From Planctomycetales bacterium (GTDB lineage: Bacteria > 4484-113 > JAFGCY01): a stretch of 32,000 nucleotides of DNA. Positions within the stretch are counted from its first letter, which is position 1. Every line of letters starts with the position of its first letter. The notes beneath the pieces are model-generated. The model made no database searches, was not told the DNA's origin, and saw only the letters and a list, made by a program, of their open reading frames with translations. Below, piece by piece: positions 1,626 to 31,912 of the stretch. The stretch covers positions 1,740,001 through 1,772,000 of the forward strand of contig CP060262.1 in the NCBI GenBank assembly GCA_022646745.1. The letters run 5' to 3'. The position numbers and the translations under genes were made by a program.

Positions 1626-1750
1626 GAATTCCGGGATTTGTGATTTATCTTTGATTTAACCGGACTTAAAGAACCGATCTTGATTAATAATGGTCTAGTG
1701 TCTTGGTGGGGTCTGCCCCCGGGGCAAGGCACAAAGATCGGGAGTCAGGA

Positions 1751-3919: not shown

Positions 3920-4030
3920 GCCGTTCACAACTGGTTAAGCCCCGGTTATCAATTCACAGACAATTCCCAGACCGGCCGTCCTGCGGTATCTATTAAGCAT
4001 AGGAATTCCCGGCGGGAACCGATACTGACC

Positions 4031-8203: not shown

Positions 8204-8228
8204 GTTGTCAGACTCTCGTCTGACCTCC
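8204..8228 (-). repeat. Right terminal inverted repeat of element A; overlaps the RND gene 3' end
   Basis: The reverse complement GGAGGTCAGACGAGAGTCTGACAAC matches 7851-7875 at 24/25 positions. Its loop is GAGA (also GNRA) on the minus strand. It encodes the last six codons (GGQTRV) and the TGA of the RND permease. Confidence 0.85.
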
Positions 8229-12685: not shown

Positions 12686-12790
12686 GGGCCTTCCTCGGGG
12701 CGGTGCGGGGAACTGCTGCACCGCGGACTCAACCAGTTGTATCAGCTGCATGTCCGGCCAGCAGCCAGGCAGCTGAGACTTGCCCGGGCT

Positions 12791-12808
12791 GGAATAGTCT
12801 GAGTATAG
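12791..12808 (+). repeat. Solitary copy of the GAATAGT-type repeat word
   Basis: ggaatagtctgagtatag, compare gggaatagtctgaatagtg at 7909. Confidence 0.55.
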
Positions 12809-12829
12809 CCTGCTGTTGACTGGCGGCAA
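12802..12829 (-). promoter_or_regulatory. Candidate sigma70-type promoter of the RND operon
   Basis: On the minus strand: TTGCCG, 16 nt, TATACT. It lies about 115 nt upstream of the adaptor start. Confidence 0.3.
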
Positions 12830-19177: not shown

Positions 19178-19404
19178 GATTTCCACCGATTCAACTGAGA
19201 TATTCCGAAAATTCTCGAAATTTCTTTAGCCCTGTCCAGCACAGGGCTCAACGCATTCCGGTGCGGTGATTTTGCAGGATTTCGTTGCCATTTGGGGAAC
19301 AAAGCAGCCAGGCTGCTCGTCTATCTGCCCGTGATGGGGTTCCTCCCCAGTCACGGAAAACAGAGTCGGATTGCCAAGTTATGCAACCGTATAGGAGGCA
19401 ATGG

Positions 19405-19542
19405 ATGACGGAGAAGGATGATAAGCCGCGAGAACCGCGCATGCTGCCAGGGAGCACTGGCAGCGACCGTGATCCGGGATGCGTCCCGTTGACACGGTAC
19501 CCGGGCTGTACCAGCCAGGCCACACGCACCGACGGCCTGTAG
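19405..19542 (+). CDS. Possible 45-aa hydrophilic micro-protein
   Basis: AGGAGG, then 6 nt, then ATG. Sequence MTEKDDKPREPRMLPGSTGSDRDPGCVPLTRYPGCTSQATRTDGL. GC3 is moderately high. It could equally be part of a structured leader. Confidence 0.3.
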   Translation: MTEKDDKPREPRMLPGSTGSDRDPGCVPLTRYPGCTSQATRTDGL

Positions 19543-19674
19543 CGACCACGGACTGCAGCCCTGACCTGATTCACTGAACCACGGCCGTGCGTGCACGGCA
19601 AGCCACGGGCTCAGTGCATCCCATACCAAGCTTTGCAGCGGCGCTGCCGACTGTGGCCGCCGCGAGGAGGAAAC

Positions 19675-19758
19675 ATGCTGGTCATGCTCGCATTGATACT
19701 GACAACGCTCTGGGTCCTGGCAATGCTGCCTGGGACCGTGCCACAGACACGCTTCTGA
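19675..19758 (+). CDS. Possible 27-aa hydrophobic micro-protein
   Basis: GAGGAGGAAAC then ATG, the same SD context as the next gene. Sequence MLVMLALILTTLWVLAMLPGTVPQTRF, one predicted TM. Not in the ORF track because it is under 60 aa. Confidence 0.4.
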   Translation: MLVMLALILTTLWVLAMLPGTVPQTRF

Positions 19759-19847
19759 TCCGGGACCACCGGGCAGGCACAGGAATCTCATTCATCCGGT
19801 GGCTGGATCACCGGAACAGGGACCGGTTTGGTCCACGGGAGGAAACA

Positions 19848-20264
19848 ATGTACTACCTTGACAACAACAACAATGACAACATCAACAGCTGGCAGAACCA
19901 TGGCCTCGACAATGAGGACCGTGACGGCGCGCAGTTCGGAGAGGACGTGCGCTACAGCATTGACAACGGGCAGGAGAGCCTGGAGTCAGCCTGGAAGTCA
20001 CGGATGGCCGAGATCGACGGCTACATCACCCAGTTCATGCATGAGGCCGATGAGCTCTCCGAGGAGATGATCGATGACCTCAGCCACAACTTCAGCGAGT
20101 GGTGGGAGAAGCAGCCGATGTCCGACAAGGTCCGTGCCGAGTGGCAGAAGGCCAGGGCAGACGGCAAGGTGGTGCGGGCCCGCATGGAGCAGCGCCTGAC
20201 GCACCTGGTTGAGGATGGCAAGCTCAAGTGGAAGGAATGGACCCGCCGCAACGGCGCCGGATAG
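19848..20264 (+). CDS. Hypothetical Trp-rich helical protein, paralog A
   Basis: GGGAGGAAACA then ATG. Asn/Asp-rich N-terminus. The core aligns with the 20911 and 21279 products (E.AW...EID..I..FM....W....EW...RAR.EQR..HLV.DG.L). The ORF-track extension to 19587 is rejected. Confidence 0.75.
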   Translation: MYYLDNNNNDNINSWQNHGLDNEDRDGAQFGEDVRYSIDNGQESLESAWKSRMAEIDGYITQFMHEADELSEEMIDDLSHNFSEWWEKQPMSDKVRAEWQKARADGKVVRARMEQRLTHLVEDGKLKWKEWTRRNGAG

Positions 20265-20334
20265 GCGACCCCGCGCAGCATCCACTGACAAGCACTGACT
20301 GGGCGGCCGCCGTGCGACCGCCGGGAGAAATCCA

Positions 20335-20487
20335 ATGCTTTACACCATCGCCGTAATCCTGATCATCCTCTGGCTGCTGGGACTCGTCGGGTTCCCGACC
20401 ATCGGAGGCTTCATCCACATCCTGCTGGTGATCGCAATCATCATGATCCTCGTGAACATCATCAGTGGACGCCGCGCGATCCTCTAG
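20335..20487 (+). CDS. lmo0937/DUF5670-like small membrane protein, copy 1 (50 aa)
   Basis: MLYTIAVILIILWLLGLVGFPTIGGFIHILLVIAIIMILVNIISGRRAIL has the two-helix hairpin and GRR tail typical of the lmo0937 family. Absent from the ORF track. Confidence 0.8.
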   Translation: MLYTIAVILIILWLLGLVGFPTIGGFIHILLVIAIIMILVNIISGRRAIL

Positions 20488-20642
20488 GAACACCACTGCA
20501 TTCCATCCTGTGCGGGAGGTGCCCACGGCCTGGTGGCCCCTCCCCCCAATGATGCCAACGAACTACACCATCCGGTCCCGCTGCCCTGCAGCGGGGCCGG
20601 GAATAAACCAAACCAACCTGTCCGGTTGAAGTGAGGAGAACA

Positions 20643-20792
20643 ATGCTTTACACCATCGCCGTAATCCTGATCGTCCTGTGGCTGCTCGGATTCGTGGGAT
20701 TCCACGTACTTGGCAACTTCATCCACATCCTGCTGGTGATTGCGATCATCATGATCCTCGTGAACATCATCAGCGGCCGCAGGCCACTTTAG
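20643..20792 (+). CDS. lmo0937/DUF5670-like small membrane protein, copy 2 (49 aa)
   Basis: GAGGAGAACA then ATG. MLYTIAVILIVLWLLGFVGFHVLGNFIHILLVIAIIMILVNIISGRRPL is near-identical to copy 1 at both ends. Confidence 0.8.
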   Translation: MLYTIAVILIVLWLLGFVGFHVLGNFIHILLVIAIIMILVNIISGRRPL

Positions 20793-20834
20793 GCAGTGGA
20801 ATCGGGAACTTTTCCCGGCCTCCCTTCGTCTGTA

Positions 20835-20870
20835 AACTCGCAGGGGGCCGTGGGTGGACCCCTGCGAGTT
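20835..20870 (+). terminator. Strong hairpin after the second micro-protein gene (possible terminator or attenuator)
   Basis: AACTCGCAGGGG (20835-20846), 12-nt loop, CCCCTGCGAGTT (20859-20870). It is followed by GTCAGACT, a half-site of the GNRA hairpin motif. There is no long U tract. Confidence 0.4.
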
Positions 20871-20910
20871 GTCAGACTGCCACGGCACACTGCCGGATTC
20901 GGAGGCAAGT

Positions 20911-21231
20911 ATGACCATCAGAGAACAAAGCACCAGCGCCCAGGGCTGGCAGCGCGAATGGGAAGAGCGGACGGACCACATCGACACCCTTATCATGCGC
21001 TATACACGCCGCTGCGGTGAGCTGACATCCGACCGCGTGCAGCGCCTGACCGACGAGCTCCGGCTCTGGTTTGACCAGGAAGTGCCCCACATCAACTACG
21101 ACCCCGACTGGCAGCGCACGAAGTGCGATCCGCATTGCCTGCAGCAGCTGCTTGCCGGGCGCCTCAGCCACCTGCTGGCGGACAACCGCCTGTATATCTC
21201 GGTTGTCGAGGCCCCGGTTGTTGAGGAGTAG
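20911..21231 (+). CDS. Hypothetical Trp-rich helical protein, paralog B
   Basis: GGAGGCAAGT then ATG, an upstream context paralogous to that of 21279. It aligns with paralogs A and C (W..W....ID..I...L....W....DW....RL.HLL.D.RL). Confidence 0.75.
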   Translation: MTIREQSTSAQGWQREWEERTDHIDTLIMRYTRRCGELTSDRVQRLTDELRLWFDQEVPHINYDPDWQRTKCDPHCLQQLLAGRLSHLLADNRLYISVVEAPVVEE

Positions 21232-21278
21232 GCACAGGCTCCGGTTATCCGTGCGGACACGCGGATGGGAGGCAAGCC

Positions 21279-21602
21279 ATGAATGTTGATTACCAGACTG
21301 AGACGGAGCAGTTCGGGGCCTGGGAGGCCGCCTGGAGCAAGCACTGTCCGGAGATCGACCGGCGCATCGTCCGCTTCATGGAGGACAGCCCAAGCTTCAG
21401 CCCCGAATCGCTGGCTATCCTGACCAGTGAGATCAGTGACTGGCTGGATACGCGCCAGATCAACGGGGAAGCCTGGGTGGAGTGGCGCCGGATCAGGCTT
21501 GAGCCGGACTGGCTGCGGGCTCGCGTCGAGCAGCGCATTGCGCATCTCGTGGCGGACGGCAGCCTCAGGCTCAACATCTGGCGCGAGGGCTGGCACTACT
21601 AG
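21279..21602 (+). CDS. Hypothetical Trp-rich helical protein, paralog C
   Basis: GGGAGGCAAGCC then ATG. It is closest to paralog A: EAAWSKHCPEIDRRIVRFM / ESAWKSRMAEIDGYITQFM, and RARVEQRIAHLVADGSLRL / RARMEQRLTHLVEDGKLKW. Confidence 0.8.
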   Translation: MNVDYQTETEQFGAWEAAWSKHCPEIDRRIVRFMEDSPSFSPESLAILTSEISDWLDTRQINGEAWVEWRRIRLEPDWLRARVEQRIAHLVADGSLRLNIWREGWHY

Positions 21603-21659
21603 CCCTCTGTCCGCTGGGGTCCGCAGCAGCCGGATTTGAATTCAGCGCGCATTCTGGGC

Positions 21660-21665
21660 GATAAT
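21660..21665 (+). promoter_or_regulatory. -10-like box (GATAAT) overlapping or just preceding the carboxypeptidase start
   Basis: GGGCGATAAT gtttcac GTG. The in-frame GTG 21673 lies 7 nt after the box and would give MLRLRCIYTGMLLALLQLGAAQA. Confidence 0.3.
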
Positions 21666-22476
21666 GTTTCACGTGCTGAGGTTGAGATGTATCTACACAG
21701 GTATGCTGCTGGCGCTGCTGCAGCTTGGTGCTGCGCAGGCCCAGACGCATGACCTGAATGAACTGTCCTGCAAGTCCTACCTGATCTTCGACCTGCAGAG
21801 TGAACGCATCGTGGCCCAGGGCAACCCGGACCGCAGCCAGCCGATTGCTTCCATCACGAAGCTGATGACGAGCATCCTGGCGGCCGAACGCCTGCGCTTC
21901 GATGGCCGCTACATCCTGACCGCGGAGGAACAGAAGACCTTCCACTGTGAGACGATGCGTGGGCAGAAGATGCTGGAGATGATGCTGATCCCGAGCAACA
22001 ACAAGATGTGCAGCGTGGTGGCACGCATCATCAGCGGCTCCGACGACGCCTTCGTGAAGGAAATGAATGCCAAGGCGCAGCAGCTCGGGATGTACAACAC
22101 ACGTTTCGCGACCCCGAGCGGCCTGCCGCGGGACGGGCAGTACTCCACGATGGAGGACGTGCTGCTGATGACCCGCGTGGCGCTGACCTACCCGCGAATC
22201 CGTGATGCGATGACCCGTGAAACGGTTGAACTCAACGGCGAGGTCTACTCCGGTACCCTGCGCGACCTGTATGGCCGCCATCCGGGACTGATCGGTGGCA
22301 AGACCGGCTACACCAATGCGGCCGGGCGCTGCCTGACCCTGTGGTACCGCAGCGGCGGGCGCGACTACATCGTGATCACCCTGTGCAGCAAGGGCAGCAA
22401 GTCTAGCTTCCGCGACGCCGAGATCCTGCTGAGCAACTTCGGCCTGTGGGACGGCGAGGTCGGTGCCTGGGAATGA
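21664..22476 (+). CDS. D-alanyl-D-alanine carboxypeptidase (peptidase S11, class C low-molecular-weight PBP)
   Basis: SxxK SITK, SxN SNN, KTG in GGKTGYT, and a signal peptide ending AAQA. The alternative leaderless start is GTG 21673. Confidence 0.88.
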   Translation: MFHVLRLRCIYTGMLLALLQLGAAQAQTHDLNELSCKSYLIFDLQSERIVAQGNPDRSQPIASITKLMTSILAAERLRFDGRYILTAEEQKTFHCETMRGQKMLEMMLIPSNNKMCSVVARIISGSDDAFVKEMNAKAQQLGMYNTRFATPSGLPRDGQYSTMEDVLLMTRVALTYPRIRDAMTRETVELNGEVYSGTLRDLYGRHPGLIGGKTGYTNAAGRCLTLWYRSGGRDYIVITLCSKGSKSSFRDAEILLSNFGLWDGEVGAWE

Positions 22477-23567
22477 CGCGCTGCCTGCCGCTCCTGCTGC
22501 TGGCGCTGGTGCTCTGTGCATCATGTGAACAGCTGCAGCGCGCGGCGAACAAGCCCGGCGGCGTATTCGGGCCATCCGAGAAGGTGCTGCGGGAGTACCA
22601 TGACTCGCGCTGGCAGGCCGTTGTCAATGCGGTGGCAGAGGGCAGTGATGAAGTCGTGCTGCCGGATGAACCGGAAGTGCCGAAGGCACTGGAGAAGCTG
22701 AACCTCGAGCAGGGCTACCAGGCGCTGGCTGCCAACCGCACTTCCGAAGAGCTGAGCTGGCAGGCCCTGATAGAGCAGAGTGACCTCAGCATGCGCTTCT
22801 CGGCGGAGGTGCTGGACGTGCTGGAGCGCAATGACGCGGACAGCATCAGCCAGATCGTGCCGCAGATTGACGACTATGCCTCGCAGCAGGAGACGGCGAT
22901 GTCCGACTGGCGCGCACTGCGCAGCCAGCTGCGCGGCAGCCTGGACTCCCTGCAGCAGGACTGGGACAGTGCCTGGCCGGACAACGAGTTCGACTTTGAC
23001 CTGCTGGCCCAGGTGGAGCGCATCCAGGCGGACCAGCTCGGGCGGCTCAGCCCGGAACGGATCGCTGCGCTGACACACTACCATGACAACGAATTCTCAC
23101 GGCTGGCAACGGACTACCTGGAGTATGAACCGGCGGAAGCTGAGGAGATCAGCGCCGTGGCGCATGTGCCGGCGGACTGCGAGGGCATCAGTGATGCCAC
23201 GCGCCGGCTGGAGGCCGCGCTGATCGTGCGCCATGCGCTGGACAGCGCGATCGTGCGTGACCGCGAGCTGGTGGAGAGCTACGTGCCGGGCGTGCTGGGC
23301 AAGGGCCCGATCAGCAATGTGAGCATCCCGGACACGCGCTACGGCAGCCACCGCGCGCGGCTGGCCGTTGCCAGGCTGGAGCTGTACAGCATGCTCGACG
23401 GGCTGGTGACGGATGTGCTGGACGTGATGATCTACGATGTCAACCGGGAGTGGACGCTGGCCTGGCCGGGCAATGAGCTGGAGAACAACATCTTCGCCTA
23501 TGCCGGGGTGCAGCAGACGGTGCCGCGGCTGGAGGACCCCTACGAGGCCCCGGCGTCCAAGCCCTGA
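22473..23567 (+). CDS. Hypothetical lipoprotein
   Basis: ATGA overlap with the preceding stop. MTRCLPLLLLALVLCASC contains a lipobox. Helical, acidic mature part. No family recognised. Confidence 0.75.
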   Translation: MTRCLPLLLLALVLCASCEQLQRAANKPGGVFGPSEKVLREYHDSRWQAVVNAVAEGSDEVVLPDEPEVPKALEKLNLEQGYQALAANRTSEELSWQALIEQSDLSMRFSAEVLDVLERNDADSISQIVPQIDDYASQQETAMSDWRALRSQLRGSLDSLQQDWDSAWPDNEFDFDLLAQVERIQADQLGRLSPERIAALTHYHDNEFSRLATDYLEYEPAEAEEISAVAHVPADCEGISDATRRLEAALIVRHALDSAIVRDRELVESYVPGVLGKGPISNVSIPDTRYGSHRARLAVARLELYSMLDGLVTDVLDVMIYDVNREWTLAWPGNELENNIFAYAGVQQTVPRLEDPYEAPASKP

Positions 23568-23656
23568 GCTGACAGTCGGTCCAATCCCGCTTAAGCCCCG
23601 GTGAACTCCCTGACAACCCACTTGGCCCCGGTGTTTCCATGCCTTAGGCTCTAGCC

Positions 23657-23848
23657 GTGGAAGACAAAGCAACAGTTGAGCAGCTGCAGCAGCGCGTCGA
23701 GCAGCTGGAGGCGCAGGTGGCGGGCCTGCTGGAATCAAACCGCAATATCGTGGATGCCCTGCGCCAGATCGAGAGCTGGATCGTGAATGCCAGCAAGGTG
23801 CTGACAGCGCAGATCCAGCAGCAGGGTTCAGGCGAGCAGGGACAGTAG
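23657..23848 (+). CDS. Possible small coiled-coil protein (63 aa)
   Basis: GTG start. Heptad-like VEQLQQRVEQLEAQVAGLLESNRNIVDALRQIESWI. GC3-rich. The 3' end overlaps the convergent HAD gene by 21 nt. No clear SD. Confidence 0.45.
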   Translation: MEDKATVEQLQQRVEQLEAQVAGLLESNRNIVDALRQIESWIVNASKVLTAQIQQQGSGEQGQ

Positions 23849-24664
23849 GTAGCGGCCCAGTTCCGCTTCGCCGTTGTCAGGCAGCACATGGCTTGCCAAC
23901 GCCAGCGCCTGCGGATGGGAATGGCCCATTGCCACCGCCCTGCCGGCTGCTGCCAGCATCGGCAGGTCGTTGGCATCGTCGCCGACGGCCATGGTCTCAC
24001 TTATGTCCAGCCCGAGCAGCTGCGCGAATCTCCCCAGCGCCCAGCCCTTGTTGCCATCGGGATGGAACACCTCCAGTGCGTGGCAGGGCATGCGCGGCCA
24101 GAGCACGCATTCGGCGAACACATCGTCGCCAAGCCCGGTTTCAAGGGTGCGCTTGCCTTCGAGCACGAGCTCCTCAGTGCCGGGCATGCTCAGCTGCAGC
24201 ACCTGGCGCTCGGGCAGCTCTTCGAGTGATGCAATCGTGCCGCCGCGTGCGCCATACTCCGAGAAGTAACGTGTCTGCAGCACGGACTCGGCGCGCTTAA
24301 GCCAGGCGAAGTCCATCGGGTCCTCGTCATCCCATTCGAAGTAGAGGTTCAGCGAATGCGGCTCCAGCAGGGAGACGGCCTGCTCGACGAGGCGGTGCTC
24401 CAGCGGCTTGCTGGCCAGCCGGGTCCAGTCAGGCAGCTGCCAGAGCTGGGTGCCGGAGTTGCTGCTGGCGAGGATCGGCAGGCCGATCTGGTCCATGTAG
24501 GGTTCGAGGGTGGTGCGCCGCCGGCCGGTGATCACCGCCAGCGCCACGCCGGCTTCATGCAGCTCACGCAGGGCCCGCAGGTTGATCTCCGGGATGCGGT
24601 GGTCATCGACGGGCAGCAGCGTGCGGTCGAGGTCCAGGGCGATCAGCTTTGGCAGGGTGGGCAC
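23828..24664 (-). CDS. Cof-type HAD-IIB family phosphatase
   Basis: Motif I LIALDLDRTLL, motif IV GDDANDLPML, and a cap domain between them. GTG start. Confidence 0.88.
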   Translation of the reverse strand: MPTLPKLIALDLDRTLLPVDDHRIPEINLRALRELHEAGVALAVITGRRRTTLEPYMDQIGLPILASSNSGTQLWQLPDWTRLASKPLEHRLVEQAVSLLEPHSLNLYFEWDDEDPMDFAWLKRAESVLQTRYFSEYGARGGTIASLEELPERQVLQLSMPGTEELVLEGKRTLETGLGDDVFAECVLWPRMPCHALEVFHPDGNKGWALGRFAQLLGLDISETMAVGDDANDLPMLAAAGRAVAMGHSHPQALALASHVLPDNGEAELGRYLLSLLA

Positions 24665-24670
24665 GGAGGG

Positions 24671-24676
24671 ATTATC
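24671..24676 (-). promoter_or_regulatory. -10-like box (GATAAT) 6 nt upstream of the HAD start codon
   Basis: The minus strand reads GCGATAAT ccctcc GTG, with no SD. Compare GCGTATAAT cccc ATG at 29737-29721. Confidence 0.35.
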
Positions 24677-24708
24677 GCAGGTGGGCGTGGAGGAAGTGTG
24701 GAGAAGAA

Positions 24709-24738
24709 GGGACCGGGGACCAGGGACCAGGGATCGGG
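24709..24738 (+). repeat. Heptamer array GGGACCR x4, left arm of inverted repeat B
   Basis: gggaccg gggacca gggacca gggatcg gg. It pairs with 24805-24815 (11/11) and 24833-24863 (about 25/29). Confidence 0.85.
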
Positions 24739-24804
24739 TGGGAATGGTGATCAGGAATTAGCGGAAATACAAACAATGTACCGGTTATCCGTTTGATGCA
24801 TAAA

Positions 24805-24863
24805 CCCGATCCCTGCACCCTGAAACCGGATTCTGGTCCCCGGTCCCAGGTCCCCGGTCCCTG
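24805..24863 (-). repeat. Right arm of inverted repeat B (split by a 17-nt insert)
   Basis: cccgatccctg ... ctggtccccggtcccaggtccccggtccctg is the reverse complement of the GGGACCR array. Confidence 0.85.
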
Positions 24864-24872
24864 CTATATACT
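24862..24872 (+). promoter_or_regulatory. Candidate extended -10 (TGCTATATACT) for the ABC exporter gene
   Basis: It directly abuts the right arm of repeat B and lies about 75 nt upstream of ATG 24946. It resembles GCTATACTCAG at the RND promoter. Confidence 0.3.
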
Positions 24873-24945
24873 CAGCCCGTGGCACTTTACAGGTGTTGGG
24901 ATGAAACTGCCAGTGCGTCCCGCAACGTAACTGTCACTGGAACAT

Positions 24946-26988
24946 ATGCCAACTGAGCAGAACAAGCCGGCCCCTCCAGCCGCGGAAAGCAGCCAGCAGA
25001 AGGCGCAGCGCACCAGCTTGCGCAACTCGCGGCGCTTCATCGCGCGCTGGATCATCATCTCGAGCGTGGTCTCGCTGCTGCTGGGTGGCCTGCTGCTCGT
25101 CTTCAATACAAAGATCAACACGCTGCTGGCGGACTTCGACTCGCTCGGCAGCATCGAGGGCGGCCCGCTGGCGGTATCCATCTTCATGCTGGCCGGCGGC
25201 TGCGGCCTGCTGCTCCTGCTGCCGGTGCTTGGCGGCGAGCGGCGCGAGTGGGAACGGATCATGCCGCTGATCTTCGAGCAGCGCGGCCACTTCTCGAAGA
25301 TGCTGATGGGCAGCGCGATCTTCGTCGTGACCGAGATGTCATTGCCGGCCTTCATCGGCTACATGGTGAATGACATTGTCAACACACAGCGCAGCATGCC
25401 CGGGCTCTACATCGCGATCGGCGTGCTGCTGGCGGTGCTGGTGCTGCGCGCCGTCGGCGGCTACTTCCGCCAGAACCACGCACAGGCGCTGGCCTACAGC
25501 ATCTCCGCCGACCTGCGCCAGAAGCTGTACTCGCACCTGCAGAAGATGAACTTCAGCTACTTTGACAAGGCCCGCCAGGGCGACCTGATGTCAACGCTGA
25601 CGAACGACGTGGAGAAGCTGCAGTTCTTCCTGCTGAACTCCAGCGAGGACTTCTTCGTGGCCCCGCTGAAGGTCTACATCGGCATCGCCTGCGTGATCTT
25701 CCTCAACTGGAAGCTGGCGGTGGTGATCATCCTGACGATGCCGCTGATCTCGATCATGCTGAAGTTCGCCGGCGGGCGGCTCAGGCGCATCAACCGCGAG
25801 GCGCAGGACTGGGTGGCTAAACTGACGGCGGAGCTGGCGGAGGGCATCAACACCATCCGCCTGGCCCAGAGCTTCGGCCTCGAGCGCACCGAGCTGTCAC
25901 GCTTCCAGCACACCAATGAGGAGACCCGGCGGCACCTGCTCGGGCATGCCCAGGTCAGCGCGGTGCTGCTGCCGATCGTCGAGGCGATCGGCTTCATCGG
26001 CCCGCTGGTGATCATCATCTCGCTGTGCTGGTGGGCGATCAGCGGCGGGGTGGACCTGAAGGCGGCGGAGATCCTCACACTGGCCGGCTACGGCGCGCTG
26101 ATTGCCAACCCGCTTGGCAAGGTCAGCCGCCTGATGGTGACCCTGTCCCAGGGCGAGGCCGCCAGTTCCCGCATCAACGGCATCCTCGACACCGAGGCCG
26201 CGATCCACGACCTGCCGGATGCCAAGGAGATCGCCGAGGTGGACGGCCGGATCGAGTTTGACAACGTGACCCTGCAGTACGGCGCGAAGGATGCCTACGC
26301 CCTGCGCGAGGTCAACCTCGTGATCCAGCCCGGCACACTGACGGCATTCGTCGGCGAAAGCGGCAGCGGCAAGTCCAGCCTCGTGCACCTCGTGCCGCGC
26401 TTCTACGAGGTGAGCAGCGGGCGGGTGCTGCTGGACGGGCATGACGTGCGCGGCCTGAAGCTTGCCAACCTGCGCAGCCACATCGGGCTCGTCAGCCAGG
26501 ACACGATCCTCGTGCATGGCACGATCGCCGAGAACATCGCCTACGGCACGCCGGATGCGGACCATGTGGAGATCCTCGGCGCGGCCCAGAGTGCCAACGC
26601 CCACACCTTCATCATGGAGTTCCCGGATGGCTATGACACGGTGGTCGGCGAGAAGGGCGTGACCCTGTCCGGCGGCCAACGCCAGCGCATCGCGATTGCG
26701 CGCGCATTGCTGCGCGACCCGCGCATCCTGCTCTTGGATGAGGCCACGAGCGCACTCGACAGCGTGAGTGAGGCGATGGTGCAGGATGCGCTCAACAAGC
26801 TGATGTTCGGCCGCACCACGCTCCTCGTCGCACACCGCCTGTCAACGGTGCGCCATGCTGACAATATCGTGGTGCTGAAGGCCGGCCGCATCTTCGAACA
26901 GGGCAACCATGAGGCACTGATCGCGAAGGGTGGGGAGTACGCACGGCTCGTGAAGCTGCAGGGCATGGCGCGGGAAGAGTCCGGATAG
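24946..26988 (+). CDS. ABC exporter, fused permease and ATPase (MsbA/ABCB-like), with an N-terminal extension
   Basis: Walker A GESGSGKSS, Q-loop VSQD, signature LSGGQRQR, Walker B ILLLDEATSALD, H-loop LLVAHRLS. Roughly 90 extra N-terminal residues carry two further hydrophobic segments. Confidence 0.92.
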   Translation: MPTEQNKPAPPAAESSQQKAQRTSLRNSRRFIARWIIISSVVSLLLGGLLLVFNTKINTLLADFDSLGSIEGGPLAVSIFMLAGGCGLLLLLPVLGGERREWERIMPLIFEQRGHFSKMLMGSAIFVVTEMSLPAFIGYMVNDIVNTQRSMPGLYIAIGVLLAVLVLRAVGGYFRQNHAQALAYSISADLRQKLYSHLQKMNFSYFDKARQGDLMSTLTNDVEKLQFFLLNSSEDFFVAPLKVYIGIACVIFLNWKLAVVIILTMPLISIMLKFAGGRLRRINREAQDWVAKLTAELAEGINTIRLAQSFGLERTELSRFQHTNEETRRHLLGHAQVSAVLLPIVEAIGFIGPLVIIISLCWWAISGGVDLKAAEILTLAGYGALIANPLGKVSRLMVTLSQGEAASSRINGILDTEAAIHDLPDAKEIAEVDGRIEFDNVTLQYGAKDAYALREVNLVIQPGTLTAFVGESGSGKSSLVHLVPRFYEVSSGRVLLDGHDVRGLKLANLRSHIGLVSQDTILVHGTIAENIAYGTPDADHVEILGAAQSANAHTFIMEFPDGYDTVVGEKGVTLSGGQRQRIAIARALLRDPRILLLDEATSALDSVSEAMVQDALNKLMFGRTTLLVAHRLSTVRHADNIVVLKAGRIFEQGNHEALIAKGGEYARLVKLQGMAREESG

Positions 26989-27019
26989 TGGAAGAAGTCT
27001 GAATAGTGGAAGAAGTGAT
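26989..27019 (+). repeat. 9-nt tandem array, left arm of element D
   Basis: tggaagaagt ctgaatagt ggaagaagt gat begins immediately after the ABC stop codon. Confidence 0.75.
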
Positions 27020-27062
27020 TAGTGTTTAGTTCTTAGTAGCGGCGGCGCCCCCGCCGCTGGGG
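27020..27062 (+). repeat. Direct repeat 1 (~44 bp) with an internal GC hairpin
   Basis: tagtgtttagttcttagtagcggcggcgcccccgccgctgggg, with stem AGCGGCGG/CCGCCGCT. About 41/44 identity to 27155-27198. Confidence 0.85.
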
Positions 27063-27089
27063 CAGGTTGGAGTGGGGAGTTTGGAGTTG

Positions 27090-27116
27090 GGAGGCGCGCA
27101 ACTTGTTTGCGCGCAA
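27090..27116. repeat. GCGCGCAA hairpin box, copy 2
   Basis: GGAGGCGCGCAACTTGTTTGCGCGCAA matches 7987-8013 at 26/27 positions. Confidence 0.85.
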
Positions 27117-27154
27117 TTCGATGGTGAAGCAGTCCGAAGAGGGTAAGAAGTTGC

Positions 27155-27198
27155 TAGTGTTTAGTTCTGAGTAGCAGCGGCGCCCCCGCCGCTGAGGG
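27155..27198 (+). repeat. Direct repeat 2 (~44 bp) with an internal GC hairpin
   Basis: tagtgtttagttctgagtagcagcggcgcccccgccgctgaggg. Confidence 0.85.
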
Positions 27199-27200
27199 AT

Positions 27201-27221
27201 GTCAGACGAAAGTCTGGCAAC
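27201..27221 (+). repeat. Third copy of the GNRA hairpin motif
   Basis: GTCAGACGAAAGTCTGGCAAC. One stem position has changed to a U-G wobble. Compare 7855-7875. Confidence 0.8.
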
Positions 27222-27231
27222 AGTTAGCAAA

Positions 27232-27291
27232 GGGCAGTAGGCAGCGGGCAGTAGGCAGGATGAGAATGAGAAACAGAATGAGAAGCAGCAG
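27232..27291 (+). repeat. Two adjacent short tandem repeats
   Basis: gggcagtaggcag c gggcagtaggcag, then gatgaga atgagaa acagaatgaga agcagcag. Confidence 0.75.
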
Positions 27292-27305
27292 ATGCCTATG
27301 CTCCC

Positions 27306-27348
27306 CTACTTCTTTCACTTCCCCCACTATGCAGACTATCCAGACTAC
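27306..27348 (-). repeat. Reverse-orientation GAAGAAGT/GAATAGT-type array, right arm of element D
   Basis: The reverse complement gtagtctggatagtctgcatagtgggggaagtgaaagaagtag resembles the 26989 array. Confidence 0.7.
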
Positions 27349-27399
27349 CGCTGAAGCAGGTAGCTCCGCACATCCCTCATCCCGCATCCCCAGCCAGGC

Positions 27400-28140
27400 T
27401 TACAGCCTGGCCTCCCGTTCCTCCCTGTCACGCAGCCGCACATGTTCGCGCAGCACACCCGTTCCGAGCGTGATCTCCAGCAGGTTGGCAAAGCCCCATT
27501 GCCAGAGTGGCGTGGAGAGGATGAGCATGCCCAGCGGTGTGAAGCTGGCGATGCTCTGCGCATCGTGCAGCAGCAGGTTGAGCGCGGAAAGGATCATCAG
27601 CGGGGCAAGGGCGATCGTGCTGATTGCAGTCGCTGCACCTGGCCTGCGACGCAGCTCCAGCAGGTAGGGTAGCTGCATCCCCGCGGCCCGGGCCCGGCCG
27701 AAGCCCGTTGCCAGGTTGAGGTGGATATGGTCGAGCCGGGCAAGGTATCCGCTAGCGTAGTCCTCCACCGGTGGGTAGTTGTCGTCGCTGAGCAGCCGCA
27801 GCAGCAGGTCAGAACCGGCAATGCGTCGGCGCAGCTCCACGAGTAGCATCCCCAGCCGCAGCAGCTGGAACAGGCCGAAGCAGAATGAGAGGATGAAGCC
27901 CGCCATCAGCAGGCGGAAGGGTGGTGTCTGGCTCACGCTGCCAGCCAGCGGGTAGTCAGCCGCAAGTGAGTACACCACGCGCCAGCCGCAGATAAGGTAG
28001 AGCACTACGGGGATGATCACGAGGAACAGCCAGGCGGCAAGCATTGTCATTTCCGGTCCCAGCACGCGGCCGGCCGGCAGCACGCGCTCTCCCTGCGGCG
28101 GGGTGAACAGGATGCGCTCGAAACTGTGCCGCTCAGGCAT
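27400..28140 (-). CDS. Hypothetical 4-TM membrane protein, paralog 3 of 3 (last gene of the operon)
   Basis: The start ATG 28140 overlaps the stop of the upstream paralog by 8 nt (ATGCCTGA). Shared motifs: SFERILF, RRRIAGSDLLLRLL, VLREHVRLRD. TM pairs flank a ~65-aa soluble loop. Confidence 0.8.
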   Translation of the reverse strand: MPERHSFERILFTPPQGERVLPAGRVLGPEMTMLAAWLFLVIIPVVLYLICGWRVVYSLAADYPLAGSVSQTPPFRLLMAGFILSFCFGLFQLLRLGMLLVELRRRIAGSDLLLRLLSDDNYPPVEDYASGYLARLDHIHLNLATGFGRARAAGMQLPYLLELRRRPGAATAISTIALAPLMILSALNLLLHDAQSIASFTPLGMLILSTPLWQWGFANLLEITLGTGVLREHVRLRDREEREARL

Positions 28141-28948
28141 CGGTTGTCTGTCCTGTGTCAGACGGCTGGTCGATGTGCAGTAGGCCGTTGTCAAGCTCGC
28201 GCAGGTGCTCACGCAGCAGGGATTGCTGTACAAGCTGGTACATCACCGGCAGGGCCAGCCAGGTGATGATTACGGCCAGCACAACCTGCGTGACAGCAAT
28301 GATGAATGTCTCGTTACCGCTGCCGTTGGCCGGCGCATTGGACCGCAGATGGCTCAGTGGAACCAGGACTGGAACTGAGAGGCACAACCAGATCAGCAGC
28401 AGGTTCACGATCAGGGGAGGCCAGGGGGATTTCCTCAGGCCAATGCAGTAATCAAGCTGGCGGAAAGCCTCGATGAAGTGGTTCATCATTGTCTCTTTGC
28501 GCAATGCCAGCAGTTCGAAGCTGCGCAGCCAGCCCGCCAGCGGGCCATCGTGGTACTCCACCCGCCAGCCATGCATCAGCCGGACCGCGATGTCGGACTG
28601 CTTCAGCCGGCTGCGCACCCTGTCCAGATGCGCCCGGGCGCGGCTGGTGAGGAACAGTGTTGCCAGCACCGGGGCCAGTACCGCAAGCACAAGAGCTGCG
28701 ATGGTGAGGCCGTCCAGCTGCGGGTTGCCCTGGCTCGAGCCCAGCGTTGCCATCATCATGTCCACTATCAGGGAGATTGCAACAAACAGCAGGCTGATCA
28801 TTGGCGCAAGCGTCAGGCCCATTGCCATCACCATGTTGATGAAGGCATCCGCAGAATCCATCCGGCTCAGGCCGAAGCTCCTGCGGTCCATCTCGCCGAA
28901 CACCTGCTGCTCCAGGCTGGCCCTGGGAGTGTCGGACACATCAGCCAT
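28133..28948 (-). CDS. Hypothetical 4-TM membrane protein, paralog 2 of 3
   Basis: The start ATG 28948 overlaps the upstream stop by 8 nt (ATGGCTGA). Motifs: SLEQQVFGE, RSRLKQSDIAVRLMHGW, LLREHLRELD. Confidence 0.85.
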   Translation of the reverse strand: MADVSDTPRASLEQQVFGEMDRRSFGLSRMDSADAFINMVMAMGLTLAPMISLLFVAISLIVDMMMATLGSSQGNPQLDGLTIAALVLAVLAPVLATLFLTSRARAHLDRVRSRLKQSDIAVRLMHGWRVEYHDGPLAGWLRSFELLALRKETMMNHFIEAFRQLDYCIGLRKSPWPPLIVNLLLIWLCLSVPVLVPLSHLRSNAPANGSGNETFIIAVTQVVLAVIITWLALPVMYQLVQQSLLREHLRELDNGLLHIDQPSDTGQTTDA

Positions 28949-29723
28949 GCAACACCTCCACTGCCGCTGGCCGTTGGCTCACGCTGGATGCCTGCTTGTC
29001 AAGGTCGCGCAGGTGCTCGCGCAGCAGCAATGCTTCACAGCGCTGCGCAAGAAAGGCATGCAGGCAGACATGCGTTGCCAGCAGCAGGCATGCTTCAATG
29101 GCTGCATAATTCAGGAAACTGTAGAAGTTGACCGGGGCATTGAGCACAATGGCAACCAGCAGGGCTGCAAGCATGGGCAGCATCAGGATTGAAGGCAGCC
29201 AGCGCTGTTTTTCTCGGCCCTGCATGAAGGACAGCTGCTGGAATACCAGCCGCAGCTGCAGCGCCAGATCCCTGCCGGAATCAGTTTGCATTCCCTGCTC
29301 AATCTCCCTCAGCAATGCCAGGAACGGTGCATCCGGGCTGTCGGGTTGCCAGCCGGTCATGACCCTCGCCACCAGGTCAGAACGTCTCAGCATGCGCCTG
29401 GCGACGGAGATCCTGCGTGCCAGCAGCAGCAGGTTCAGCAGGCTGAGCAGTACGGCACTGAGCGCGAGCGACCAGCCAATGGTCTCAATGTATTCGTAAT
29501 CAAAGGCATGGCGCACACCGGGATTGATAGCCTTGATTGGAGCGAGCGTGTACTGTAACCATAGGAGCGGCGGCAGCAGCGAAGGCACGAGGATGGCCAG
29601 CGCAGGCCACAGGGGATAGAGGTAAGTGCTGCGTGGTTCGCGACTGGCGTGCTCGCCAAACACCCGGTTCTCAAAGCTGGCCGTCTGCATCGTCCCCTCT
29701 GTATCAAGCATGTCCATTCCCAT
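28941..29723 (-). CDS. Hypothetical 4-TM membrane protein, paralog 1 of 3 (first gene)
   Basis: Motifs: SFENRVFGE, RRMLRRSDLVARVMTGW, LLREHLRDLD. The start is uncertain: ATG 29723 lies 4 nt after a TATAAT box, while ATG 29690 has AGAGGGG upstream. The ORF-track extension to 29837 reads through the intergenic heptamer array and is rejected. Confidence 0.8.
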   Translation of the reverse strand: MGMDMLDTEGTMQTASFENRVFGEHASREPRSTYLYPLWPALAILVPSLLPPLLWLQYTLAPIKAINPGVRHAFDYEYIETIGWSLALSAVLLSLLNLLLLARRISVARRMLRRSDLVARVMTGWQPDSPDAPFLALLREIEQGMQTDSGRDLALQLRLVFQQLSFMQGREKQRWLPSILMLPMLAALLVAIVLNAPVNFYSFLNYAAIEACLLLATHVCLHAFLAQRCEALLLREHLRDLDKQASSVSQRPAAVEVLHG

Positions 29724-29727
29724 GGGG

Positions 29728-29733
29728 ATTATA
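29728..29733 (-). promoter_or_regulatory. TATAAT box at the head of the three-paralog operon
   Basis: The minus strand reads GGCGTATAAT cccc ATG. No convincing -35. Confidence 0.4.
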
Positions 29734-29764
29734 CGCCTGCGGGCATGGCTGCGCCAGCCTTGAC

Positions 29765-29831
29765 AGCAATGAGCAATGAAGAGTGAGCAATGAGTAGGAA
29801 GCAATGAGTAGGGATCAATGAAGAATGATCC
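29765..29831 (+). repeat. Heptamer array (AGCAATG-type, about 9 units), left arm of inverted repeat C
   Basis: agcaatg agcaatg aagagtg agcaatg agtagga agcaatg agtaggg atcaatg aagaatg. Positions 29765-29794 pair with 29867-29896 at 29/30. Confidence 0.88.
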
Positions 29832-29866
29832 TATCAATGTTTAGCAGGACTCGATGCAGGTTCAGT

Positions 29867-29915
29867 CTCATTGCTCACTCTTCAGTGCTCATTGCTCCCC
29901 ACTCATTGCTCCCCC
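29867..29915 (-). repeat. Right arm of inverted repeat C
   Basis: ctcattgctcactcttcagtgctcattgct ccccactcattgctccccc is the reverse complement of the AGCAATG-type array. Confidence 0.88.
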
Positions 29916-29917
29916 GC

Positions 29918-29946
29918 TTGACCCGCAAGCCGCATCCGCGGATAAT
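29918..29946 (+). promoter_or_regulatory. Sigma70-type promoter for the Tyr-rich lipoprotein gene
   Basis: TTGACC (29918-29923), 17 nt, GATAAT (29941-29946). AAGGGGA SD, then ATG 29976. Confidence 0.55.
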
Positions 29947-29975
29947 TGACTGGTAGTCCATCCAAGGGGAATAGC

Positions 29976-30827
29976 ATGGGAACGCAGAAGGGTATCGGTT
30001 TCGCAGGCGTGCTCGCCATCAGCCTGGCCTCACTGGTCTTCGGGGCCTGCGGCGGCGGAGGGGGCAACATCACCGGCTACGTGGTGCCGGACAACCCCTA
30101 TTACTACGGTGGCAACAACGGCCCCTACTACTCAGGTAACAGCGACTACTACTACCAGAACGGCTACTACTACGACCAGTATGGCTACTATGACCAGTTC
30201 GGCTACTACGACGGTTATGGCAACCAGCTGTACAACTCGAATGACCCGGCCTACGTGAACATCGTCAACCGCAACGGACGTGGCAACGACCCCTTCATGC
30301 AGAACTATGCCAACATCAACGACCGCACGGTCTCGCAGTTCGTCAACTCAACCTACTCCGAGATGCTGGCGGACTTCGGCGGCAGCCTGCAGGACCTGCT
30401 GGTGCGCGTGGATGGCAACTCAGTTGACATCCCGCCCGGGGAGTACACGCTGGCAAGCCGCAATGCGGTGCTCAGTGAGGACGGCGGCCTGGACAGCGCG
30501 ATCACGCTCAACTCCAGCTATGACGGAGTCAGCCTCGTGACCTACACGCTCGAGGAGTTCTCCGGCTACGAGCAGCTGGCCAGCTTCGCCATCAACGGCA
30601 CGGGCAGCTTCGGCAGTGGCGACCGCAACGGGGTGTACTTCGGCATCCGCCAGTACGGCGACCGTGACACCCGCTGGTACGGCCCCTACCGCAACGGGAT
30701 GGAGTGGAAGGTGCGCCCGCTGCGCTGGGATGAGCGCTACCAGTCGCGCCACTGCTTCGTGACCGTGGCTGTGTTCGGTGGAGACAGCGTGACCGTGAAC
30801 CACATGCGCGCTGAGGTCGTTTACTGA
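29976..30827 (+). CDS. Lipoprotein with a Tyr/Gly/Asn-rich low-complexity region (hypothetical)
   Basis: MGTQKGIGFAGVLAISLASLVFGAC contains a lipobox. It is followed by GGGGG, then NPYYYGGNNGPYYSGNSDYYYQNGYYYDQYGYYDQFGYYDGYG, then a ~190-aa globular part. The start was chosen by SD; the ORF-track start is 29946. Confidence 0.8.
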   Translation: MGTQKGIGFAGVLAISLASLVFGACGGGGGNITGYVVPDNPYYYGGNNGPYYSGNSDYYYQNGYYYDQYGYYDQFGYYDGYGNQLYNSNDPAYVNIVNRNGRGNDPFMQNYANINDRTVSQFVNSTYSEMLADFGGSLQDLLVRVDGNSVDIPPGEYTLASRNAVLSEDGGLDSAITLNSSYDGVSLVTYTLEEFSGYEQLASFAINGTGSFGSGDRNGVYFGIRQYGDRDTRWYGPYRNGMEWKVRPLRWDERYQSRHCFVTVAVFGGDSVTVNHMRAEVVY

Positions 30828-30916
30828 ATCGAGGACTGACGAGGCACTGAATCTCGTGCTGAGGGAATTCCATGGAATCTCCACATTCCGGCATGCCTGC
30901 ATTGCGCAGCCCGGGC

Positions 30917-30922
30917 TATAAT
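30917..30922 (+). promoter_or_regulatory. TATAAT box 6 nt upstream of an in-frame GTG of the next lipoprotein gene
   Basis: GGGCTATAAT cgccca GTG (30929). Starting there gives a canonical lipoprotein signal, MAKSSVWLCIVCFALLLAGAC. Confidence 0.35.
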
Positions 30923-30928
30923 CGCCCA

Positions 30929-31369
30929 GTGGCGAAAAGCTCAGTCTGGTTATGCATTGTATGCTTTGCACTGCTGCTGGCAGGTGCCTGCGGCAGTTCA
31001 TCCACATATTCCTACCGCCTGCCGGCCGGCGTTGACAACAACCTGCGCATCGTGCGCGCCGGTGACCCGAACTCGGTGCTGGCCGACACGCAGGACAAGG
31101 GGCGGATCACGATGCGGGTCGGCGAGACGCTGACGGTCTCGGCGATCTACCGCTTCCGTTCTGCGATCTTCACCGGCACTGACGAAAAGGATGAATTCGT
31201 CACCGCGGACAGCAGCTGGCACTGGCTGGAGGCCGTGAATGACACACTCAGCTTTGACAACGGGGTGGTCACGGCACTCAAGCCAGGGGTGGACACGCTC
31301 AAGGCGGAGTACCGCGACAACGACATCTTCGAGGACTTCGACGCCAAGCTGGAAATCACCGTTGAATAG
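30929..31369 (+). CDS. Small lipoprotein, possibly an Ig-like (Big_2-like) fold, paralog 1
   Basis: Lipobox LLAGAC. ITMRVGETLTVSAIYRF...VTALKPGVDTLKAEY resembles bacterial Ig-like group 2 strands (not verified). Alternative starts are ATG 30872 and 30893. Confidence 0.75.
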   Translation: MAKSSVWLCIVCFALLLAGACGSSSTYSYRLPAGVDNNLRIVRAGDPNSVLADTQDKGRITMRVGETLTVSAIYRFRSAIFTGTDEKDEFVTADSSWHWLEAVNDTLSFDNGVVTALKPGVDTLKAEYRDNDIFEDFDAKLEITVE

Positions 31370-31426
31370 GGGCACGGTACCGGGATGGGCAGACGGATCA
31401 GGAAACCACAGTTACAGGAGCTGGAA

Positions 31427-31861
31427 ATGACAATCAACAGGATGGCGGGGATCTTCCTCGCAATGGTGGCGATGCTGGCGCTGGCCGCCTGCGGCGGTGG
31501 CGGCAGCGAGTACATGCTGCCCACCGGCCAGGACTACAGCCTGCGCCTCGTGAAGGGCGGCGACCCGAATGACGTGCTGGCCTCCACCGAGCGCAAGGGC
31601 CACATCACGATGAATGTCGGCGAGACGCTGAATGTCACGACGATTTACCGCTTCCGCTCGGCGATCGGCGACAAGGAGAAGGATGAGTTCGTCACGGCGA
31701 CCTCGGCCTATGTCTGGCTGGAGGACGTGAATGACAAGCTGAGCTACAGCAACGGCAAGATCACCGCGGTCAAGGCCGGGCTGGACACCCTGCTCGTTAA
31801 CTACGTTGACAACAATGCCAATGAGACCGTGTCCTGCCGGCTGGAGATCACGGTCAACTGA
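31427..31861 (+). CDS. Small lipoprotein, paralog 2 of the 30929 gene
   Basis: AGGAG SD then ATG. MTINRMAGIFLAMVAMLALAAC contains a lipobox. ITMNVGETLNVTTIYRFRSAI...KDEFVTA...ITAVKAGLDTLLVNY...LEITV is colinear with the upstream paralog. Confidence 0.82.
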   Translation: MTINRMAGIFLAMVAMLALAACGGGGSEYMLPTGQDYSLRLVKGGDPNDVLASTERKGHITMNVGETLNVTTIYRFRSAIGDKEKDEFVTATSAYVWLEDVNDKLSYSNGKITAVKAGLDTLLVNYVDNNANETVSCRLEITVN

Positions 31862-31884
31862 TCTTCATCGGATTGATCCACAGT

Positions 31885-31912
31885 GGGCCCGCTTCGGCGG
31901 GCCCTTTCTGCT
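31885..31912 (+). terminator. Rho-independent terminator
   Basis: GGGCCCGC (31885-31892), loop TTCG, GCGGGCCC (31897-31904), then TTTCTGCTTTCTG. Confidence 0.85.

Follow-up and report, generated by a model that had tools for sequence, protein, structure and literature searches.

What kind of membrane system is specified by three overlapping genes whose products resemble one another and no described protein? The question is raised by a 32-kb stretch of contig CP060262.1 (32,000 nucleotides, called the window below), deposited as DNA of a Planctomycetales bacterium. The region 27400-29837 of the window holds three consecutive minus-strand open reading frames (ORFs), as seen in the ORF listing and by direct reading of the sequence. 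A first-pass annotation had taken them as an operon of three tandem paralogous proteins, each with four transmembrane (TM) segments, and had proposed a fixed hetero-oligomeric channel, pore or sensor. The analysis described here upholds the tandem paralogy, and places the three genes in a copy-variable array of an orphan family in which a predicted cytoplasmic module is constant and the membrane part varies. To the question of function the answer is tentative: the paralogues may be interchangeable subunits of a mixed membrane oligomer. The genes, named A, B and C in the order of transcription, are as follows.

28941..29717, minus strand: gene A, class-I four-TM paralogue of about 258 amino acids (258-260), supported by the ORF, a conserved start and its match to B.
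28133..28948, minus strand: gene B, class-I four-TM paralogue of 271 amino acids, supported by the ORF and by the orthologues P0001 and P0002.
27400..28140, minus strand: gene C, class-II ("C-type") four-TM paralogue of 246 amino acids, the last gene of the array.

The three ORFs, BLASTP between A and B, and profile comparisons confirm the tandem paralogy. A and B match each other with E=2e-11. C is not detected in pairwise comparison with the other paralogues; a hidden Markov model (HMM) built from 11 class-I members, without any C-type sequence, matches it at 40.5 bits (E=1e-8, Z=1e6), and hhalign relates class I to class II with 98.5% probability. On these alignments the paralogy of A, B and C is beyond chance. 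Hydropathy predicts four TM segments in each protein, arranged as two pairs. Lysine and arginine amount to 14-16% of the N-terminal tail, the central loop and the C-terminal tail and to 4-6% of the two short loops, and because of this distribution the topology is predicted to be N-in/C-in. The start assigned earlier to gene A, at 29723, does not hold: that ATG is not conserved and reads CCG in a 97% identical relative (L001; related loci carry L numbers and related proteins P numbers). The conserved start is ATGGACATG at 29717, which is kept in the window, L001, L004, L008 and L009. An alternative ATG lies at 29690, with the Shine-Dalgarno (SD) sequence GAGGGG upstream. The ratio of nonsynonymous to synonymous substitution (dN/dS) is 0.18-0.55 over ten orthologue pairs of 46-98% identity, and 0.69 for the near-identical A pair of the window and L001, in which there are almost no substitutions. 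From these values A, B and C are taken as genuine genes.

The family had not been recognised from the sequence, and the HMM and fold searches that have since been run bear this out, giving no confident match to a characterised transporter or channel. Pfam and NCBIfam scans of A, B, C and their neighbours return noise only, the best being DUF898 (E=0.011, 15 bits against a cut-off of 28). A Pfam scan of 16 members one by one finds no recurrent family, and PADLOC and PHROGs scans find no matches. Against all PDB sequences the family profile likewise gives noise only, the best match being the nicotinic acetylcholine receptor (nAChR) delta subunit at E=0.24, with rhodopsin and FliQ (E=2.1) also appearing. 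Foldseek was run against PDB and BFVD with two AlphaFold2 (AF2) models, of mean predicted local distance difference test (pLDDT) 62.8 and 76.6, and returned nothing with E<0.2. In PDB the better model has a best E of 0.24, its top matches being generic designed four-helix bundles and its TM-scores 0.33 or less; in BFVD the best E is 0.46. The family is thus new, in that it matches nothing described in sequence or fold searches.

It is also very rare. Word-indexed searches of 5.8 billion proteins find near-identical orthologues and three diverged ones only, and 1.84 billion cluster representatives, searched exhaustively with an HMMER profile, yield 12 proteins in total, 247-309 amino acids long except for one fragment. 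The family is present in two of 185,579 species genomes ("UBP7 HKST-UBA03" and "AC1.30"). Scans of JGI metagenome contigs and IMG/VR viral contigs find no relatives, so a phage origin is not supported. The proteins are, as far as sequence can tell, an orphan family of four-helix inner-membrane proteins of about 250 amino acids, confined to a handful of uncultured bacteria of the UBP7 lineage. Saline activated sludge is a reported source of UBP7 metagenome-assembled genomes (MAGs; PMC8495973). A protein with 100% identity to C comes from a MAG that bears the label "Planctomycetales bacterium", and the relatives go under the labels UBP7, "bacterium" or "Bacteria 4484-113". These relatives point to candidate phylum UBP7 instead, and the taxonomic label of the source is probably wrong or not settled.

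Where, then, is the family constrained? The motifs noticed at first in the three proteins are real, and are conserved across 16 family members. Every member has the N-terminal helix motif S-[LF]-E-x2-[VIL]-F, the central-loop motifs R-x2-L-x2-SD[LI]-x2-R and QL-x-Y-x-LG-x4-P-x2-P, and a juxtamembrane helix, continuing from TM4, with the motif LLREHLRE[IL]D. The best-conserved columns (B numbering) are E13, F17, P49, R112, D119, R123, W128, Q164, L165, Y167, G170, P175, P178, L244-R250 (LLREHLR) and D253. The central loop is 73-76 amino acids long in 16/16 members, and the outer loops have 0-20 amino acids. Mean BLOSUM sum-of-pairs scores are 1.34 for the post-TM2 helix, 1.71 for the pre-TM3 segment and 2.45 for the post-TM4 helix, against 0.23, -0.07 and 0.03 for TM2, TM3 and TM4 and about -0.3 for the outer loops. 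An AF2 model of B made from 17 sequences (pLDDT 76.6, predicted TM-score 0.73; an earlier model, at pLDDT 62.8, was of low confidence) shows a long bundle of four helices, of which TM2 (80-117) and TM4 (210-253) extend as helices into the cytoplasm, in the motif regions. The general picture that emerges is a constant cytoplasmic module, predicted to consist of the N-terminal helix, the fixed-length central loop and the juxtamembrane helix, joined to TM helices and outer loops that vary. Since the TM helices are the least conserved part, the earlier suggestion of a channel or pore is disfavoured.

Also conserved is the boundary between the genes; the two junctions of the window are listed here together with the likely promoter.

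28941..28959, minus strand: A/B junction, read directly; SD GGAGG at 28959-28955, 6 nt, then ATGGCTGA at 28948-28941.
28133..28154, minus strand: B/C junction, read directly; weak SD AGGA at 28154-28151, then ATGCCTGA at 28140-28133.
29728..29733, minus strand: conserved -10 box TATAAT within GCAGGCGTATAATCC, the likely operon promoter (predicted).

Direct reading confirms the 8-nt start/stop overlap described at both junctions. The A/B junction reads ...GGAGGTGTTGCATGGCTGA, with ATG at 28948-28946 and TGA at 28943-28941, so that the A terminus CAT GGC TGA overlaps the B start ATG GCT GA; the B/C junction reads ...GATGCCTGA, with ATG at 28140-28138 and TGA at 28135-28133, and the B terminus GAT GCC TGA overlaps the C start ATG CCT GA. 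The CATGGCTGAG form, the same as at A/B of the window, is also present in L008 and L009. The (G/A)TGCCTGAG form occurs at four boundaries in L011, at the B/C boundary of L008 and L009 and at both boundaries of L014; in L012 it is left as an out-of-frame relic. The whole signal, GGAGG-N5-6-GATGCCTGAG or GGAGG-N5-6-G(A/G)TGCCTGAG, is found at nearly every junction in all genomes with the family, and accounts for the frequent ...DA ends and MPE starts of the proteins. It persists, as the SD followed by ATGCCTGA, between paralogues merely 15-30% identical.

From these overlaps translational coupling and a fixed stoichiometry had been deduced. The SD-preceded overlaps do fit coupling. The argument for stoichiometry is not sustained, the identical junctions (SD + ATGCCTGA; (A/G)TGCCTGA) being better explained, on the sequences compared, as the inherited boundary of a tandemly duplicated unit. 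More telling is a 32-codon ORF in L008 and L009, MDMPETAGTVGSAS...AEAADA*, that directly follows the conserved promoter (L008 6237-6335; L009 9661-9759). It has a beginning like that of window A, a class-I tail at its end, and the ATGCCTGA overlap with the next gene. It is an in-frame deletion relic of an A-type gene, in which promoter, start codon and overlap have been retained and the reading frame still runs into the junction. The relic is the best available evidence for selected coupling, which appears to be conserved and under selection.

The -10 motif precedes the first gene of the array in the window, L001, L004, L008, L009 and L012, and as CATATAATC in L011. A consensus promoter scan did not call the box because there is no good -35. 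The conserved ATG of gene A is 10 nt downstream of TATAAT, from which the mRNA may be nearly leaderless.

The first-pass annotation had asked if the triplet is a conserved unit in related genomes. The site itself is syntenic, in the order purC-purB-purE, clade-specific lipoprotein paralogues, the divergent four-TM array, 0-3 paralogues of a soluble protein "D", and then a convergent ATP-binding cassette (ABC) exporter, a HAD hydrolase and a D-Ala-D-Ala carboxypeptidase. At this one site the arrays are of different sizes, 2, 3, 1+3, or 4 and a stub. Locus by locus, with two short contigs added, the arrays contain:

Window and L001: 3 genes each.
L008 and L009: a separately transcribed "up" copy and 3 genes.
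L011: 4 full genes, then a 75-codon C-type-like stub adjoining an IS200 transposase.
L012: 2 genes, both class I, no class II; the junction is decayed to an out-of-frame ATGCCTGAG relic.
L013: at least 2 genes on a short contig, with a 31-nt gap before the C-type gene.
L014: at least 3 genes on a short contig.

Homologues are essentially always tandem, and the separately transcribed copy of L008 and L009 adjoins an array. The triplet is not what is conserved. By an identity matrix and a neighbour-joining (NJ) tree the family divides into two deep classes, with about eight subtypes in all. Window A groups with its orthologue P0008 (46% identity). Window B has the orthologues P0001 (97%) and P0002 (47%), and in the tree groups with P0002 (44%). 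Window C has the orthologues P0006 (72%), P0007 (69%) and P0010 (33%), and its partners in the tree are the C protein of L008 (68%) and P0010. The "A" and "B" of L008 are subtypes other than window A and B, and the C-type alone is common to both loci, for which reason the triplet is not regarded as a conserved unit. What recurs is the tandem arrangement, and the last position of the C-type gene (window, L001, L008, L009, L013 and L014). Both deep classes are found together in 6/8 informative arrays (window, L001, L008, L009, L014 and, as a remnant, L011). The family forms a tandem array that grows and shrinks by recombination between units. The L004 contig ends in an Illumina adapter at 2760-2800 (AGATCGGAAGAGCACACGTCTGAACTCCAGTCA); the P0002 stop codon therefore arose in assembly, and the true L004 sequence probably continues GATGCCTGA into another paralogue.

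The array also changes between close strains. The window and L001 are 100% identical over 3.3 kb of housekeeping DNA (21250-24550) but 86-99% identical in the array, and a gene D is present in L001 and not in the window. In C, 11/18 amino acid differences fall within residues 44-75 (Fisher p=6e-7), a stretch that runs from late TM1 through outer loop 1 into early TM2. The synonymous divergence (dS) in this patch is 0.77 versus about 0.18, and therefore a patch imported by recombination is favoured over simple positive selection. Differences cluster in the same way in C and A between L009 and L008. Over 19100-31900 the window and L001 form a mosaic, with 81-88% identical patches at 20350-21250 (small unannotated ORFs), 27720-28320 (the tail of B and the N-terminal half of C) and 30720-31019 (a lipoprotein gene boundary). 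The patches are recombination hot spots in clade-specific genes.

What would such an array make? The reading that we prefer, tentatively and at somewhat less than even chances, is that the co-translated paralogues are interchangeable subunits, which the constant cytoplasmic module would bring together as a mixed membrane oligomer. Transcription of genes A-C would start at the conserved TATAAT promoter, their translation would be coupled, and the paralogues would co-assemble in the inner membrane through the module. The subunit make-up would be interchangeable, with at least one class-I subunit and usually a terminal class-II, C-type subunit. The complex would work at the cytoplasmic face, in docking, gating or signalling, and would present a diversified membrane- and periplasm-facing surface; it would not be a pore with a conserved lumen. 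In support are the paralogy and genuineness of the genes, the constancy of the cytoplasmic module, the conserved coupling junction, the presence of both classes in most informative arrays and the variation on the outer side. Several observations weigh against it. Copy number (2-5) and subtype content differ between close relatives, a pattern that paralogues acting independently would explain equally well or better. In L012 both genes are class I and the junction is decayed, and L013 has its 31-nt gap; from these arrangements neither coupling nor the pairing of classes is obligatory. Finally, the conservation at unit ends could in part reflect concerted evolution rather than function.

A bolder form of the mixed-oligomer reading, which we regard as unlikely, is a new combinatorial inner-membrane complex. 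Here the N-helix, the 74-amino-acid loop and the LLREHLRE helix would constitute a cytoplasmic "hub" that oligomerises interchangeable class-I and class-II subunits, and the gain, loss and recombination of units would re-tool the membrane-facing surface between strains. If true, this would be a bacterial analogue of the subunit-swapping receptor and channel families, without a relative among known folds.

The alternative that survives best, doubtful as it is, holds that the array is a collection of specificity variants acting independently, as monomers or homo-oligomers: immunity-like inner-membrane proteins or receptor decoys, each directed to a different membrane-targeting agent (bacteriocin, effector) or to phage entry. 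Tandem, copy-variable arrays of polytopic immunity proteins are known, such as DUF443/TsaI next to TspA in Staphylococcus aureus. A single syntenic site that differs in copy number (2, 3, 3+1, at least 4) and in subtypes agrees with such a collection, as do the strain-level hypervariability and the recombination patch in the outward-facing part of C, the parallel variation of the neighbouring clade-specific paralogue arrays (0-3 soluble D genes; the lipoproteins), and the IS200 transposase and DUF2283 genes near some loci. However, the 32-kb window has no toxin, no Rhs, LXG or CDI domain and no secretion system; by Pfam annotation of the window and the relatives' flanks no toxin or secretion genes are found, a search that orphan immunity islands would escape. 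PADLOC and PHROGs are without matches, and no membership in a described immunity or defence family is found in Pfam, NCBIfam, PADLOC or PHROGs. Outer loops of 0-20 amino acids offer little recognition surface. The strongest conservation is in a charged cytoplasmic motif cluster for which a passive immunity protein has no obvious need, and the coupling junction has been kept even through the in-frame loss of a gene.

The first-pass proposal itself, a fixed 1:1:1 channel, pore or sensor of these three subunits, is improbable. The 8-nt overlaps at both junctions, the triplets with the same overlaps in L001, L008 and L009, and the recurrent last position of the C-type gene speak for it. Against it, the triplets of the window and L008 are of different subtypes, C excepted, and arrays of 2 and of at least 4 exist. 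In addition, the TM helices are the least conserved part, unlike those of channels and transporters, and the outer loops are too short for a periplasmic sensor.

Even less probable is a family of ion-driven stator subunits like MotA, PomA, ExbB and TolQ, a comparison that starts from topology. PomA and MotA are of similar size and have the same plan of a TM pair, a cytoplasmic loop of about 75-100 amino acids, a second TM pair and a cytoplasmic tail; the array proteins also have a conserved proline pair at the cytoplasmic start of TM3, and ExbB, TolQ and PomA were among the noise-level Foldseek matches of the first, low-confidence model. Thus the four-TM topology with a large TM2-TM3 loop is found, but the profile, the fold and the partner gene are not. 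No PF01618 (MotA_ExbB) match is seen in 16 members by hmmscan against Pfam, even at E<=1. The better model loses ExbB and PomA among the matches listed and keeps TolQ at noise (E 2.4-2.9, TM-scores 0.15-0.20). No single-TM partner gene of the MotB, ExbD or TolR type lies in or beside any array, and the TM3-TM4 core, which stators conserve, is not conserved in the array proteins. The weakest alternative, with next to no probability, is that the genes are spurious ORFs in G+C-rich DNA or decaying pseudogenes: long ORFs lie on the opposite strand at 28473-29192 and 28478-29131, as is usual at about 62% G+C, but the reading is refuted by selection (the dN/dS values above) and conservation, with motifs kept in frame across about eight subtypes, SD sequences and junctions conserved, and a moderately confident AF2 model.

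As had been noted, no enzyme, ATPase or regulator lies inside the operon. The array genes overlap each other, and at every locus they are flanked by lipoproteins, soluble D proteins or the ABC exporter. Three predicted lipoprotein genes are divergent from the array in the window (29946-30827, 30872-31369 and 31385-31861), one encoding 293 amino acids with a Tyr/Gly-rich tandem-repeat region (30138-30213) and two paralogous, of about 160 amino acids. They have no Pfam, PADLOC or PHROGs match, and are conserved beside the array in L001, L004, L008, L009 and L012. The soluble D proteins, downstream of the array, are a second orphan family of about 270-290 amino acids with an N-terminal DNWSRDISAELEEL and a C-terminal GVD-x-YVYILD; they are without a database match and have 0-3 copies per locus, located as follows.

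L001, 11808-12608: one D gene.
L008, 8937-9809, 9931-10809 and 11415-11846: three D genes.
L009, 12467-13369: one D gene.

The wider window (8208-12829 and 1703-6202) is ordinary chromosomal DNA, with a resistance-nodulation-division (RND) efflux pump (AcrB-like protein and HlyD-type adaptor), an ankyrin-repeat protein, two PAS histidine kinases, isocitrate/isopropylmalate dehydrogenase and inorganic pyrophosphatase, and no secretion-system or toxin genes.

The operon had also been described as boxed in by repeat elements. The repeats are real; they are of two different kinds, and are not specific to the operon.

29765..29911, no strand assigned: inverted AGCAATGAG repeat array (3 + 3 copies), which lies where the promoters of gene A and the lipoprotein gene diverge.
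26973..27230, no strand assigned: two direct repeats with a 135-nt period and an aligned core of 77 nt, between the convergent gene C and ABC exporter.

AGCAATGAG has six exact copies in the upstream element, versus 0.39 expected, and none elsewhere in the window. It folds into an imperfect hairpin some 140 nt long (z=-6.1), with an arm next to each of the two divergent promoters. L008 and L009 retain one arm upstream of gene A, and the upstream repeats are absent in L004, L011 and L012. The downstream repeats have a G+C hairpin, GCGGCGCCCCCGCCGC, at 27042 and 27177, and are likely a bidirectional terminator or an element like the repetitive extragenic palindromes. In L001 (11540-12990) three repeat copies after and one inverted copy before surround the extra gene D, of 266 amino acids, which suggests repeat-mediated gain or loss. 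A second divergent intergenic region of the window, 24700-24865, has four GGGACCN copies facing four of GGTCCCN (z=-4.9), the same design with a different heptamer. In both divergent regions, 3-4 tandem copies of a region-specific 7-9-mer face equal inverted copies about 60-100 nt away, and the sequence of either region folds into a long imperfect hairpin whose arms each adjoin one of the two promoters. The inverted arrays may serve as operators or belong to a genome-wide class of repeats, and they recall the heptameric short tandemly repeated repetitive (STRR) sequences. An Rfam scan of 26800-30100 gives only a sub-threshold microRNA-like match to the hairpin repeat. Mobile-element boundaries were considered and rejected: the flanks differ, the site is syntenic in all genomes, and the same architecture is found at an unrelated intergenic region. 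The flanking repeats are general intergenic features of the genome, not shown to be part of the system.

If the family is as it seems, it has a membrane-protein fold without a described relative, and evolves in an unusual mode, as a coupled tandem array in which the unit boundary is conserved and the units diversify. Orphan families are common in candidate phyla, and the present one has an extremely narrow distribution, with 12 among 1.84 billion cluster representatives. The array is one of few strain-variable loci in candidate phylum UBP7, which has no cultured member, and could show how these organisms handle membrane-directed attack or signalling. The relic ORF would be a clean natural example of selection for translational coupling.

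Among known systems, the stator A-subunits MotA and PomA (with ExbB and TolQ, PF01618) are alike in being inner-membrane proteins of about 250-295 amino acids, N-in/C-in, with very short periplasmic loops, a large cytoplasmic TM2-TM3 loop and a cytoplasmic C-terminal tail whose charged residues are functionally important. The array family differs in having no sequence or fold similarity to them, no B-subunit gene and no conserved TM3/TM4 core. Moreover, one stator gene forms a homopentamer, whereas the array has several heterologous paralogues in tandem. Immunity-protein arrays (DUF443/TsaI beside TspA, and immunity to pore-forming colicins) are also multi-TM, copy-variable tandem paralogues at a strain-hypervariable locus, for which recognition inside the membrane or at its outer surface is presumed. 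From these the four-TM array differs in lacking homology and a nearby cognate toxin or secretion system, and in its syntenic chromosomal position, its strongly conserved cytoplasmic motif cluster and its conserved coupling. Relative to the pentameric ligand-gated channels and the FliP/Q/R export gate the array shows noise-level matches only (nAChR delta at E=0.24, FliQ at E=2.1), and it is without a ligand-binding ectodomain and without associated secretion or flagellar genes. The genes for FliP/Q/R are nevertheless alike in being adjacent, overlapping and translationally coupled, and the pentameric ligand-gated channels and Tim17/22/23, as hetero-oligomers of interchangeable paralogues, resemble the array in being built of helical-hairpin or four-TM paralogues able to mix.

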